Assembly: GCA_046496425.1 (NCBI GenBank)
Contig: JAWOGY010000234.1
Span: 1-24,000, forward strand
DNA length: 24,000 nt
Reading direction: 5' to 3'
Origin: Vicinamibacterales bacterium
GTDB taxonomy: Bacteria; Acidobacteriota; Vicinamibacteria; Vicinamibacterales; JAKQTR01
Shown here: one piece after another, positions 7,373-14,671 of the stretch
How the letters are laid out: each line of letters begins with the position of its first letter
How positions within the stretch are numbered: position 1 is the first letter of the stretch
Translations under genes and position numbers: made by a program
The notes under the pieces: generated by a model
Seen by the model: only the letters and a program-made list of their open reading frames with translations
Databases searched by the model: none
What the model was told of the DNA's origin: nothing

Positions 7373-8179
7373 ATGTCCGTGATGAATCCCGACCAGCAGC
7401 CTCGTTCAGGGGGCATGGGCAGATTCCTGCTGATTGGCGCGGCGGCGCTCGCCGTGCTCGCCCTGGCCTACGCCGGCGTCACGATGCTGATGACGCCGGA
7501 GGCGAAGTCCGAGCCGGCACCGGCTGCCCGGGCCGAGCCTGAACCGGAGCCGCCGGCGGCGAAGCCGTCCGAGCCCGAGATGCCCGCCGACGCACCAGCG
7601 GCCCGAAGGCCCCGGCCGCGCAAGGAATCGCTCCCGGCCCCCGAGCCGGCCGCGCCGCCGCCCGCCGGCCCGACGCTCGTTGTCGAAAGCGACGTCCCCG
7701 GCGCCTCGGTGTTCGTCGACCGCAAGTTCGTGGGCACCACGCCGCTGCGCACGACGGACGTGCCAGGCGGGTCCCACCAGCTGAACGCGTCGGCGACGGG
7801 CGAGGACGGCCTGGCGCAGGCCATCGAGATCGCCGAGACAGGGGAGACGACAATCGCGTTGAGGTTCAGGGAGGTGCGGCTGAACGCCTCGGTGGCCGTC
7901 GTGCACAAGCACGGCATGGGCCGATCCTGCGAAGGCCGGCTCGTGGCCACGCCCGAGGGCATCCGCTACGACACCGCCAACAGGAGCGACGCGTTCGCGT
8001 TCCCGTTCAGCGCCCTCGAGGTGTTCGAGATCGACTACCTGAAGAAGGAACTCAAGGTGAAGCAGAAGGGAGGCAAGACCTGGAACTTCACCGACAAGTC
8101 CGACAACGCGGACAAGCTCTTCGTCTTTCACCGCGACGTGACGAAGGCGCGCGAGAAACTGGCCGCCTTGGGGCGGTAG
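7373..8179 (+). CDS. Membrane-anchored PEGA-domain protein with a Pro/Ala/Glu-rich linker
   Basis: ATG at 7373 with GGAGGA 8 nt upstream. TM helix FLLIGAAALAVLALAYAGVTMLM, a P/A/E-rich linker, then the PEGA-like motif PGASVFVDRKFVGTTPL. The C-terminal ~100 aa is an unassigned globular region. Confidence 0.7.
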   Translation: MSVMNPDQQPRSGGMGRFLLIGAAALAVLALAYAGVTMLMTPEAKSEPAPAARAEPEPEPPAAKPSEPEMPADAPAARRPRPRKESLPAPEPAAPPPAGPTLVVESDVPGASVFVDRKFVGTTPLRTTDVPGGSHQLNASATGEDGLAQAIEIAETGETTIALRFREVRLNASVAVVHKHGMGRSCEGRLVATPEGIRYDTANRSDAFAFPFSALEVFEIDYLKKELKVKQKGGKTWNFTDKSDNADKLFVFHRDVTKAREKLAALGR

Positions 8180-8186
8180 AGTGTTT

Positions 8187-8216
8187 GATGGAGCCCGGGG
8201 TCTTCAGACCCCGGGG
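8187..8216. repeat. Hairpin element copy A (GATGGAGCC + 9-bp stem, TTCA loop)
   Basis: CCCGGGGTC (8194-8202), TTCA (8203-8206), GACCCCGGG (8207-8215), preceded by GATGGAG. It is near-identical to 21796-21824. It lies between convergent genes, and the TCA of the loop is the TGA stop of the minus-strand FAD-subunit gene. Confidence 0.85.
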
Positions 8217-9040
8217 GGGCGGCCCGTGTCAGCCCAGAACTGCGCCAGCAGGCGGGCGGCGACCTCGCGCCGGTAGGCGGCGGTCGAGCGGAGGTCGTCG
8301 ATCGGGCTGATGTCCTGCTGCAGGACCTGCTGCGCCTCGGCGAGCGTTGCGCCCGAGGCGAGCGCATCCTCCGTGCGGCGCGCGCGCACGACGGTGGGCG
8401 CCACGCTGCCCAGGGCGATGCGCGGATGTGCGCCGCGGACGGCCGCCATCACGACCTTCGAGATCGACTGGGCCGCGCGCGTCCCCACCTTCCGGAACCA
8501 CTGCGCACCCTCCACGCGGGGCACTTCGATGGCCGTGATGAGTTCGTCCGCCCGCCGGACGCTCGCGCGGTAGCCGGTGTAGAAGTCCGCGAAGGGCACC
8601 TTGCGCGTCCAGTCGAGGCTGCGAAGCTCGACGAACGCCTCCGCGGCCGCAACGACGGGCAGCGTATCACCCGCCGGCGAGCCATTGGCGATGTTGCCGC
8701 CGAGGGTGCCGCGGTTCTGGATCTGCACCGCGCCGATCTCCCGCGCGGCCGCGGCGAGCATGGGCAGGCGACGGCGCACCTGCGCCGATCGGAGGATCTC
8801 GCTGTACGTGGCCAGGGCACCGATGCGGAGCACGTCGCCGCGCACCTCGATCCCGCGGAGCGCATCGAGGCCCCAGAGGTTCAGAAATCGCCGGTCGGCC
8901 AGCGCGCCGGCGTTGAGGCCGACATAGAGGTCCGTGCAGCCGGCCATCGGCGCGATCGGGCCCTCCTCGCGCAGCATCCGGAGCGCTTCGCGCACGGAAC
9001 GCGGCTGCAGCAGGACGAGCGGCGAGATCGCCGTCCTCAC
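8204..9040 (-). CDS. Xanthine dehydrogenase/aldehyde oxidase family FAD-binding (medium) subunit
   Basis: GTG at 9040 with GGAGG 5 nt upstream. Motifs: PMAGCTDLYV and TLGGNIANGSPAGD, typical of CoxM/XdhA FAD domains. GTGA overlap with the stop of the small-subunit gene. The longer 527-aa track ORF is this frame running open through the upstream gene. Confidence 0.85.
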   Translation of the reverse strand: MRTAISPLVLLQPRSVREALRMLREEGPIAPMAGCTDLYVGLNAGALADRRFLNLWGLDALRGIEVRGDVLRIGALATYSEILRSAQVRRRLPMLAAAAREIGAVQIQNRGTLGGNIANGSPAGDTLPVVAAAEAFVELRSLDWTRKVPFADFYTGYRASVRRADELITAIEVPRVEGAQWFRKVGTRAAQSISKVVMAAVRGAHPRIALGSVAPTVVRARRTEDALASGATLAEAQQVLQQDISPIDDLRSTAAYRREVAARLLAQFWADTGRPPGV

Positions 9041-9591
9041 GCTCGCCTCCCGCCTTCGCCGAACGGCCTGCCGGCCGGCTTCGGCGCGGCAAGCCCCCTC
9101 CTGTTTTCTGTCTTCTGTCCTCTGTCTCCTGTCTTCTTGCTTCTTGCTTCTTGCTTCTTGATGGCCCTGTAAATCCCCGCGTACCCCGTGCACCGGCAGA
9201 TGTTGCCGGCGAGCCCCGTGCGCACCTCGTCGAGCGTGGGGCGGGGCCCGAGCGCCGCGGCCGCCATGATCATCCCCGGCGTGCAGATGCCGCATTGCGC
9301 CCCGCCCGATTCGGCGAAGGCGCGCTGCAGCGGATGGCGGCCCTTCAGCCCTTCGATCGTCACCACCCGTGCGCCCGCCGCCTGGGCGACCGGCACGAGG
9401 CACGAGTTGACGGCCCGTCCGTCCAGAAGCACCGTGCACGCGCCGCATTCGCCTTCGCCGCAGCCCTCCTTTGTGCCCGTCAGGCCGCAGTCCTCGCGCA
9501 GGACGTCGAGCAGCCGCTTCAGCGGGTGCACCCGCAGCGACGTGCGTTTCCCGTTCAGCGTGAACACGATGGGCCGATGGGCGGCGGTCAT
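9037..9591 (-). CDS. Xanthine dehydrogenase family [2Fe-2S]-binding small subunit with a low-complexity C-terminal tail
   Basis: Both cluster motifs are present: CGEGECGACTV and CGICTPG...CRCTGY. After ...GYAGIYRAI there is a tail of about 39 aa, rich in K/Q/E/R/G, partly encoded by the heptanucleotide array. Confidence 0.9.
   Translation of the reverse strand: MTAAHRPIVFTLNGKRTSLRVHPLKRLLDVLREDCGLTGTKEGCGEGECGACTVLLDGRAVNSCLVPVAQAAGARVVTIEGLKGRHPLQRAFAESGGAQCGICTPGMIMAAAALGPRPTLDEVRTGLAGNICRCTGYAGIYRAIKKQEARSKKTGDRGQKTENRRGLAAPKPAGRPFGEGGRRA
9101..9163. repeat. Period-7 tandem repeat, about 9 units (CTGTYYY x5, CTTGCTT x3 perfect, CTTGATG)
   Basis: Read directly: ctgtttt ctgtctt ctgtcct ctgtctc ctgtctt cttgctt cttgctt cttgctt cttgatg. 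It lies in the 3' end of the small-subunit gene and is purine-rich on the coding strand. Confidence 0.9.
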
Positions 9592-11741
9592 CGGTGGGCG
9601 CCTTTCCCTCTCGCCTGTCGCCTCTCGCCTCTCGCCTCTGCCCTTCCGGCCGCCATGACCCGCTCCGGCGTGGCCGGCACCTCTCGCATGTCGATGCCCA
9701 GGCTCCGGATGGCATTGACAACCGCCGGCGCCACGCCGTCAAACGGCATTTCGCCCACGCCCTTGGCCCCGTACGGCCCGCGCGCATAGGGCTTCTCGAC
9801 CAGCACCACGTCGATCGGCGGCGTGTCGAGTGTCGTCGGCACGATGTAGTTGGTGAATTGCGCGTTGGCCATGGCGCCGCCGCGCATCACCACCTCCTCG
9901 GTGAGCGCATAGCCGAGCCCCTGCGCGGTGCCGCCCTCGATCTGGCCGCGCACGCCGAGCGGGAAGATGGCCCTGCCGACCTCGTGCGCCGTGGTCACTC
10001 TGACGGGCCGGATCTCCTCCGTCACGGGATCGCGTTCGACCTCCACGACGTCGCACGCCCACCCGTATGTGCCATAGGCGGACCCGCGGTACGTCTCGTC
10101 GTCCCACTCCAGACCCTGGGGAGATTCGTACTCCTTCGTCACGACCAGCGGGCCGTGCCTGCGCAGATACGCGGCGGGCGTCAACCTGCCCAGTGTCGCT
10201 CGCATGTCGGCCGCGCACCGCTTCAGCAGCCCGCCCACCACCATCGTCGTCCGGGACGCGACGGTGGGCCCGCTGTCGGGGACGTGCGAGGTGTCGGCGA
10301 CGGCCACCTCGACCGCGTCGTAGGGGAGGCCGAGGGCATCGGCGACGATCTGGGCGTGCACCGTGCGCTGGCCCTGGCCGATTTCGGTGCTGGCCGCGAG
10401 GATCCGCACGCCCGCCGGCGTCAGTTCCAGCGAGGCCTTCGATCGCAGCATCACTTCGCCGCTGCCGGTGAACCCGGCGCCGTGAAAGAACAAGGACAGG
10501 CCGATGCCGCGGTTCGTGCCGCGGTACTCGCGCCGCTTGCGCCGGTACCCGCTGCGCGCGACGGCGGCGCGCAGCACGTCGATCGCGGCCGCATCCGCGC
10601 CGAGCACCTGGCCCGTGGCGGTCGCATCGCCCGGCCGCAGGGCGTTCAGTTCGCGGAAACGCACGGGGTCGATGCCAATCGCCTCCGCGACGCGATCCAT
10701 CTGCACCTCGGCGGCAAACAGCGTCTGCGGCGCGCCGAACCCCCGGAAGGCCCCGTTCGGCGGCGTGTTCGTCATGACGACACGGCCGTTCACGCGCACG
10801 TGGCCGCAGCGGTAGGGCCCGGTGGCGTGCAGGCAGCCGCGCGAGAGGACGACCGGGCTGAGCGTGCTGTAGGCGCCACCGTCCATCAGTACGTCGATGT
10901 CCATCGCCGTCAGGCGGCCGTCGCGCGTCACGCCGGTGCGATGGCGGACAACGGACGGGTGGCGCTTGGTCGTGGCGAGCATGTCCTCGGCGCGGTCGTA
11001 GACCAGCTTCACCGGCCGGCCCGACTTCAGCGCCAGCAGGCACGCGTGACCGGCGATGATGGATGGGTATTCCTCCTTGCCGCCGAACCCGCCGCCGGTT
11101 TCCGCCTGGACGACGCGGACCCTGTCCTCCGGCATGCCCAGCAGGACCGCGAGCGCCCGATGCACGTAGTAGGGGCACTGCATGGAGCCCACCACGGTGA
11201 TGCCCCCGTCTCCGGGGATGGCCAGCATGCCGTTGGGCTCGATGTAGAGGTGCTCCTGGTGCCACGTCCGGTACTCGCCCTCGACCACGACCTCCGCGCG
11301 TCGGAAACCCTCGTCGAGATCGCCCGTGCCGAGGGCGATCCGCTTGAACACCAGCGGGGAGCGCGCCGGGTCGAGGACGGGTTCACGCGGGCGGTACTCG
11401 ATGTCGACGACGGCGGCGAGCAGCCGCTCCCTGTCCTCGTGGGCGAGGAGCAGGATCGGCTCCGCGACATGGCGGACCTCGCCCTCTGCCAGACACGGCT
11501 GGTCGTCGGTGATGAGCGACACGATGTTGCGGCCCGGGACGTCGCGGGCCTCGACGATGGTGAATCCGGAGGTGTCGAAGCCAAGGCGAAGGCGAATGAT
11601 GTCGCCGCAGGGGATAGCGGACCGGATCGTCCGCGCGTAGAGCAGTCCAGGCAGCGTCAGGTCGTCGACGTAACGCGCTGTACCTGAGGCCTTTGCCGCC
11701 CCGTCCTTGCGAACGACGTTGCGCCCGACGGCTCGGCTCAT
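9588..11741 (-). CDS. Xanthine dehydrogenase/aldehyde oxidase family molybdopterin-binding large subunit
   Basis: Start [14 protein letters not shown] (ATG at 11741). Motifs: GGGFGGKE and [10 protein letters not shown] (XDH/AOX type, not the CODH active-site loop), and [16 protein letters not shown] overlap with the small-subunit start. The substrate cannot be assigned. Confidence 0.9.
9610..9644. repeat. Period-7 tandem repeat, 5 units (CTCGCCT-type)
   Basis: ctcgcct gtcgcct ctcgcct ctcgcct ctgccct. It encodes the large-subunit tail ...[14 protein letters not shown] and lies immediately upstream of the small-subunit ATG. On the coding strand it reads as repeated AGGCGAG (SD-like GAGG). Confidence 0.9.
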
Positions 11742-11790
11742 CCAGACCCCCGGAGCGGATTGGGCCCGGCCAGCGTGCCGGGGTGCGGCG

Positions 11791-11796
11791 ATTATA
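11791..11796 (-). promoter_or_regulatory. Consensus -10 TATAAT (minus strand) upstream of the XDH-family operon
   Basis: Plus-strand ATTATA at 11791-11796. A weak -35-like ATGAAA lies about 18 nt upstream on the minus strand. The ATG is at 11741. Confidence 0.35.
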
Positions 11797-11806
11797 GCGC
11801 CCCGCA

Positions 11807-11815
11807 TGGTAGAAT
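11807..11815 (+). promoter_or_regulatory. Extended -10-like element TGgTAGAAT upstream of uvrA
   Basis: TGGTAGAAT at 11807-11815. It lies back-to-back with the minus-strand TATAAT 11 nt away, in a divergent intergenic region of about 107 bp. Confidence 0.4.
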
Positions 11816-11848
11816 TTCATGTTTGGGCAAGGCCCGATTACCTCTGCA

Positions 11849-14671
<2,823 letters not shown>

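Follow-up and report, generated by a model that had tools for sequence, protein, structure and literature searches.

Slipped-strand contingency loci are a feature of host-adapted pathogens, with the tetranucleotide repeats of Haemophilus and the pentamers of the Neisseria opa genes as familiar examples. Repeats of another kind, the Rickettsia palindromic elements, are inserted in frame into protein-coding genes. For units of seven nucleotides, the closest description is that of Rehm et al. (2015; PMC4692102), who reported heptameric repeats in Xanthomonas (GGGAATC) and Nostoc (GGGGAYT) that are over-represented in non-coding DNA and lie near or over the stop codon of the upstream gene. Long heptanucleotide SSRs have also been surveyed by Mrazek et al., as cited in PMC4679880, and the citing paper (MacGregor 2015) is itself concerned with direct repeats of TAACTGA in marine Beggiatoaceae, cyanobacteria, and Bacteroidetes. 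Our search of the literature on heptamer repeats in Acidobacteria found no papers. Here, we describe an array at positions 9101 to 9163 that is one instance of a lineage-wide class of heptanucleotide repeats in a family of Acidobacteriota.

The array is located in a three-gene operon on the minus strand of the window, by which we mean the entire 24,000-nt stretch of DNA that was analyzed. Judging from domain content, the operon is predicted to encode a three-subunit molybdo-flavoenzyme of the xanthine dehydrogenase (XDH)/CO dehydrogenase family. Specifically, Mo-cofactor, two [2Fe-2S], and FAD domains are found in adjacent genes, and the Pfam matches of all three subunits exceed the curated cut-offs. 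The Mo-binding large subunit (9588 to 11807; Ald_Xan_dh_C, MoCoBD_1, and MoCoBD_2) has 739 aa when read in the ORF list from the ATG at 11807, while our own gene caller favors a start at 11741. It is followed by the gene for the [2Fe-2S] small subunit (9037 to 9591; 184 aa; Fer2 and Fer2_2) and by that for the FAD-binding medium subunit (8204 to 9040; 278 aa; FAD_binding_5 and CO_deh_flav_C), whose N terminus aligns with those of relatives. Each gene overlaps the next. The stop codon of the large subunit lies on the start codon of the small subunit in an ATGA (9588 to 9591) that is kept in nearly all loci of the family. The stop of the small subunit lies on the start of the FAD subunit in a GTGA (9037 to 9040), in which the TGA (9039-9037) shares bases with the GTG (9040-9038). 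A Shine-Dalgarno-like motif, GGGAGG, is found a few bases upstream of the GTGA. At the other end of the FAD gene, folding and the alignment of 3' ends with relatives point to a 9-bp GC hairpin (8194 to 8215; CCCCGGGGUC-UGAA-GACCCCGGG) that holds the TGA stop codon of the gene in its loop, and related hairpin elements occur within the linkers of relatives.

The small subunit consists of a conserved core (residues 1 to 144; positions 9160 to 9591) and a repeat-derived tail of 40 aa (residues 145 to 184; positions 9040 to 9159). The tail begins after the conserved CRCTGY..IYRAI end, as indicated by Pfam, where the Fer2_2 match stops at residue 145, and by the tails of relatives. With Tandem Repeats Finder (TRF), we detected two abutting arrays of period 7 in this region, one at 9101 to 9137 (5.3 copies, 83% matches) and the other at 9133 to 9160 (4.0 perfect copies of CTTCTTG). 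On the sense (minus) strand, they read as three to four AAGAAGC units followed by units of the AAGACAG type, nine in all, and would be translated as KKQEARSKKTGDRGQKTEN. In 100 dinucleotide-preserving shuffles of the window, a perfect 21-mer of the array was expected 0.00 times. The observations behind the original prediction hold up well. It had described nine 7-nt units within the final ~40 codons of the [2Fe-2S] gene, in a tail beyond the conserved core, and these are recovered by TRF, by the sequence itself, and by the end of the Fer2_2 match. It had also described an FAD reading frame that stays open through the region, and the ORF list contains no stop in that frame over 8204 to 9787. 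Finally, its frame arithmetic was confirmed by simulation: the addition of 7 nt, i.e., one extra heptamer, moves the small-subunit frame into the FAD frame and yields an in-frame FeS-FAD product of 464 aa, the removal of 14 nt yields one of 457 aa, and changes of -7 or +14 nt lead into the third frame. As RNA, the array is essentially unstructured (folding energy of -0.7 kcal/mol). Nothing relevant was found in Rfam over positions 7500 to 12500, and inspection by eye of the small-subunit frame of the array found no canonical X XXY YYZ slippery site of the kind used in programmed -1 ribosomal frameshifting. Neither the AAGAAGC nor the AAGACAG unit contains a GGG tract, and because its unit lacks a G-tract, an AAGAAGC array cannot form a quadruplex.

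The second half of the tail is made up of a different repeat. A GC-rich palindromic element of ~48 nt (9047 to 9094), identified as dispersed with blastn, is read in frame and would contribute approximately RGLAAPKPAGRPFGEGG. There are 20 further blastn matches in the genome, such as C109:42657-42704 and C272:23301-23347, 18 of them 37 to 48 nt long at ~90 to 95% identity, and 17 of the 21 matches (own copy counted) are intergenic. Several copies adjoin heptamer arrays. The same element is present in the linkers of relatives, where it occurs in both orientations.

The Mo/FeS junction of the operon behaves like the FeS/FAD junction. There, TRF and translation identified a second heptamer array (9599 to 9639), with ~6 units that read AGAGGCG in the sense direction, which encodes most of the large-subunit tail after the conserved motif and lies just before the ATGA. 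Simulated addition of 7 nt to this array would join the Mo and FeS subunits into a product of 925 aa. Among relatives, large-subunit tails comprise 16 to 129 aa of repeat-derived sequence, built from quite different units (GGGAYTC and AGGCGAG), and terminate at the xTGA overlap in almost all loci of the family.

Repeats of this kind are found throughout the genome (G000), which is represented by 4.69 Mb in 320 contigs with 69% G+C. TRF detected 307 period-7 arrays, which we merged into 280 blocks. Grouped by canonical unit, the families include AGCCCCT (57 arrays), AAGAAGC (48), ACTCGGG (36), AAGACAG (28), and AGAGGCG (10), along with others. With gene positions taken from our home-made codon-usage caller (3962 genes, 91.5% coding), on which all placement statistics rest, 243 of the 280 blocks (87%) are intergenic, compared with the 8.5% of the DNA that is non-coding. 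The remaining blocks are located in the final 150 nt of a gene (20), inside a gene (15), or at its 5' end (2). Within spacers, arrays are concentrated next to the upstream gene: among the 202 intergenic arrays flanked by the 3' end of a gene, 132 (65%) begin no more than 12 nt from the stop codon, and in co-directional spacers the arrays have a median relative position of 0.09. By gene orientation, 127 are between co-directional genes, 57 between convergent genes, and 25 between divergent genes. For the AAGAAGN and CAGAAGN families, the sense strand carries the purine-rich sequence in 28 of 40 co-directional spacers. The class extends to relatives, with arrays of at least three AAGAAGC units in five of eight genomes of the same genus and in two other genera of the family; none were found in 12 genomes that belong to other families in the order.

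Several further observations were made on the arrays of the family. Units that contain TAG or TAA often provide the stop codon itself in the genome under study, and several of its long arrays are situated at contig ends, which suggests that arrays break the assembly. In the operon of one relative (L082, genome G004), a long CCTATCC/CCTCTCC array starts ~25 nt past the FAD stop codon, the typical location for arrays, beyond a stop, when intergenic space is available. Both genes for PF05635 (23S rRNA intervening-sequence protein) in the genome are flanked by inverted heptamer arrays, with arms of GGGGCTA/TAGCCCC at C249:10295-10760 and AGGCGAG/CTCGCCT at C15:2560-3100. The latter arms use the unit of the 9599 to 9639 array (AGGCGAG), and a PF05635 copy with AAGAAGC arms was not found in the genome.

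To see how the junction varies, we compared orthologous operons from 12 genomes of the family and order, two loci from a genome collection, and 25 JGI metagenome contigs that were retrieved by matching a pattern to the CTGY..YRAI codons. Measured from the cysteine codon of CTGY to the FAD start, the FeS/FAD linker ranges from 59 to 338 nt and is a hypervariable mosaic of heptamer arrays and palindromic elements, with units that include CAGAAGC, CAGAAGA, AAGAAGC, CTCGGGR, CCCGAAT, CCCGAGG, and CCCCAAT. Despite this variation, the frame is conserved. Linker length equals 2 modulo 3 in 35 of 36 loci (33 distinct sequences, 27 distinct lengths), and in 33 of 35 junctions (31 distinct linkers) the small-subunit frame is open and ends precisely at the xTGA shared with the FAD start; since the sampled loci are phylogenetically related, these counts are not independent trials and overstate independence. 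Even so, the 27 distinct linker lengths imply many separate length changes. An early in-frame TAG, derived from a GTAGYCA array, is found in L109 (one of 35 junctions), and L096 appears alike by eye. The FAD gene begins with M-R-T throughout, and this start with an AGR arginine codon is kept in 33 of 35 junctions. Wherever the overlap is present, the second codon is AGR, and in the outgroup L091, where there is no overlap, it is CGA. At this junction, the purine-rich strand is the sense strand in all relatives. The distant orthologues (L003, L004, L085, and L091) have either no tail or one of at most 10 aa, with the two genes already separate. A database look-up for the exact FAD-subunit protein did not find it in other assemblies.

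Linkers that share the architecture of the window differ by multiples of three heptamers. When the window is aligned with L094, the closest relative among the metagenome contigs, the array shows two gaps, of 7 and 14 nt, for a net difference of 21 nt, and loci L100 and L113 are distinguished by a single 21-nt gap. The same periodicity is evident in proteins. A protein search returned at least 113 close small-subunit homologues (71 to 91% identity) with tails of 9 to 88 aa and a median of 47 aa, and tails are present in more than 100 protein clusters. Nine of these proteins, that of the window included, have the same element-coded end, with tails of 33, 40, 47, 47, 54, 54, 54, 61, and 75 aa. 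All nine lengths equal 5 modulo 7, such that each step of 7 aa corresponds to three heptamers, and the tails amount to roughly 6, 9, 12, 12, 15, 15, 15, 18, and 24 heptamers, respectively. No small-subunit homologue among the best 120 exceeds 232 aa, and so no third-frame run-ons were seen in that set. The array is unstable over short evolutionary time, and only frame-preserving outcomes were found among relatives. Copy number does vary among relatives, as the original prediction had suggested it might, but the single-unit changes that would switch the frame do not appear, only three-unit steps.

Fused orthologues, for which the original prediction had suggested a search, do exist in databases, but those that we traced lie in frameshifted or long-read-style assemblies. 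A search designed for fusions retrieved four FeS-FAD fusion proteins at 65 to 72% identity (P0009, P0039, P0095, and P0120). Two of the four, P0009 and P0039, were traced to their contigs. Both were rejected on account of the truncated or split Mo-subunit genes that adjoin them, on long-read-style "contig_N" ENA assemblies. In one genome of the same genus (G007), which accounts for the single in-frame junction of our comparison, the small and FAD subunits are in one frame and the array contains irregular units of 8 and 6 nt. On the 71-kb contig concerned (C18; L117 to L120), 23 of 48 genes orthologous to those of our genome are split over at least two frames. We rejected this in-frame fusion as evidence as well, since it comes from an indel-rich long-read assembly that is untrustworthy at a low-complexity tract. 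In another long-read MAG (L001, genome G003), the Mo subunit is split over three frames. Because frameshifts are frequent in these long-read MAGs, gene fusions and splits in G007 and G003 need to be treated with caution. No fusion was found in short-read assemblies, and the two genes are unfused in all of the short-read metagenome contigs.

We give a probability of roughly 0.78 to the following reading: the array is hypervariable repeat filler of a lineage-wide class that is filtered by frame and tolerated as a protein tail, with strict selection preserving the overlap of stop and start. Heptamer repeats and small palindromic elements would accumulate at the 3' ends of genes in this family of Acidobacteriota, with repeat DNA normally settling just past stop codons and, at overlaps, persisting only within the dispensable C-terminal end of the upstream gene. 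They would be confined to that end because ATGA and GTGA overlaps leave no intergenic space. The AAGAAGC, AAGACAG, and AGAGGCG units are free of stop codons and would therefore be read through as a low-complexity tail. The number of units in an array would rise and fall rapidly, presumably through slippage during replication, and selection would keep only those net changes that end the upstream frame on the xTGA, which in practice are multiples of three units (21 nt). Changes that fuse the upstream gene to the next subunit, or that let its translation run on through the next start, would be removed. Most likely, the frame constraint keeps upstream translation terminating at the next start codon, that is, termination-reinitiation coupling, which would also keep ribosomes from running on into the next gene and prevent unwanted fusions. 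Strict coupling may be unnecessary, because the FAD gene has its own Shine-Dalgarno-like motif, and the frame could have been conserved just as well by selection that disfavors run-on translation or fusion itself.

The original prediction had raised the possibility of a more dynamic role for the array, namely, a copy-number-variable switch between split and fused subunits. In such a contingency locus, single-unit slippage would toggle the FeS and FAD subunits between separate and fused forms, and both states would be used. Some of our observations are what such a switch would produce. The period is not divisible by three, simulated addition of 7 nt leads to a clean fusion of 464 aa, copy number differs among relatives, the subunits are in frame in genome G007, and there are the four fused proteins at 65 to 72% identity. 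Furthermore, fusions in the same domain order are functional in other enzymes of the family; XdhA of Rhodobacter capsulatus is a working FeS-FAD fusion of this type. We nevertheless regard the switch as very unlikely. The subunits are separate in 33 of 35 junctions and in every short-read metagenome contig, and length differences among relatives of the same architecture are quantized in three-unit steps. As for the fused candidates, 23 of 48 orthologous genes on the G007 contig are frameshifted, and P0009 and P0039 come from long-read-style contigs on which the adjoining Mo-subunit gene is truncated or split. In addition, the array is one of ~280 blocks that are mostly non-coding, and the enzyme is a cytoplasmic catabolic one, unlike the surface and restriction functions that are typically phase variable. 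The other possibility raised there, that the tail is the relic of an inter-domain linker from an ancestor in which FeS and FAD formed one protein before it was split, fares worse still, and we consider it extremely doubtful. The tail does occupy the position expected of a linker and contains no stop in the FAD frame, but the relic reading fails because distant orthologues (L003, L004, L085, and L091) have separate genes with no tail or at most 10 aa of one and because the tail is composed of a heptamer array and a palindromic element that are both dispersed at many unrelated loci of the genome. Moreover, the tail of the Mo subunit is built alike, and we know of no fusion in Mo-FeS domain order.

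Alternatively, the tail may have been selected for a role of its own, either as an unstructured, purine-rich mRNA spacer or standby site for reinitiation or as a flexible, basic protein tail that aids assembly. The near absence of structure in the array RNA (-0.7 kcal/mol), the purine-rich sense strand at the junctions of all relatives and in 28 of 40 co-directional AAGAAGN/CAGAAGN spacers, and the retention of tails in more than 100 protein clusters would all fit. Against this, tail length (9 to 88 aa), unit type, and element content vary freely, Mo-subunit tails are based on quite different units (GGGAYTC and AGGCGAG), distant orthologues are tailless, and a shared orientation at a single junction may reflect no more than common descent. 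The data can be accounted for without a spacer or standby role, and a selected function of this sort seems unlikely. That short-read mis-assembly created the array or set its length has next to no probability: several long arrays do lie at contig ends in an assembly of 320 contigs, but the 63-nt array is shorter than a typical read and homologous arrays occupy the same junction in dozens of independent assemblies. Finally, it is conceivable, if quite improbable, that single-unit slippage in both arrays continually yields low-frequency cells with fused FeS-FAD or Mo-FeS subunits, which are tolerated or occasionally useful while the consensus stays coupled, and, more broadly, that stop/start overlaps are preferred landing or growth sites for heptamer and palindrome repeats. 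If overlaps are preferred in this way, then coupled operons would provide a natural read-out of the origin of the repeats.

A switch that fuses subunits would have been a striking finding, but the evidence argues against it. Under the reading that we prefer, hypervariable filler held in register at a stop/start overlap, the locus would instead represent a clean natural example of selection acting as a filter on a hypermutable repeat, in which an array of period 7 grows and shrinks only three units at a time. In both linkers, which are hypervariable and reach ~130 codons, the reading frame stays open and in register such that stops overlap the next starts. As such, the frame filter would be indirect evidence that the overlap of stop and start matters in this enzyme operon, and the junction may be a convenient experimental system for translational coupling over spacers that are long and arbitrary. 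More generally, our findings add a well-documented locus to the still unexplained phenomenon of heptamer repeats in Acidobacteriota, Xanthomonas, and cyanobacteria.

How does this locus compare with the systems that have already been described? Like the contingency loci of pathogens, it has a tandem repeat inside an open reading frame, a period that is not divisible by three, and a copy number that changes on short time scales. Unlike them, it does not alternate between frame states among relatives, where copy number changes only three units at a time, and it involves a metabolic gene and a repeat class that is genome-wide and mostly non-coding. The resemblance to Rickettsia palindromic elements lies in the ~48-nt element, which is tolerated in coding sequence as extra peptide; here, by contrast, the insertions occur exclusively in C-terminal tails at overlaps, and tandem arrays that evolve rapidly are among them. 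Within the genome itself, the inverted arrays that bracket PF05635 genes differ from the operon's arrays, which are single rather than in inverted pairs and carry no gene. The TAACTGA repeats are likewise abundant in intergenic arrays, some of which overlap an upstream stop codon or are situated within ORFs. They are mostly found a few nucleotides upstream of starts, with a unit that contains stops, whereas the arrays described here hug stop codons and the unit is stop-free.

The heptameric repeats of Xanthomonas and Nostoc share several features with the arrays in this genome: units of 7 nt, hundreds of arrays per genome, variable copy number, and an excess in non-coding DNA, between co-directional or convergent genes and less often between divergent ones. 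They are also placed close to the upstream stop, as are the arrays here (132 of 202 within 12 nt; median relative position of 0.09), and even GGGAYTC-type units like theirs are found in the Mo-subunit tails of relatives. There are differences as well. Many unit families coexist in the genome of this acidobacterium, and the G-tracts for quadruplexes of the GGGNATC subclass are found only in the GGGAYTC arrays of relatives, not in AAGAAGC or AAGACAG. In addition, unlike those of Xanthomonas and Nostoc, the arrays of this operon lie within two overlapping gene junctions, where they are probably translated and where a frame filter is visible.
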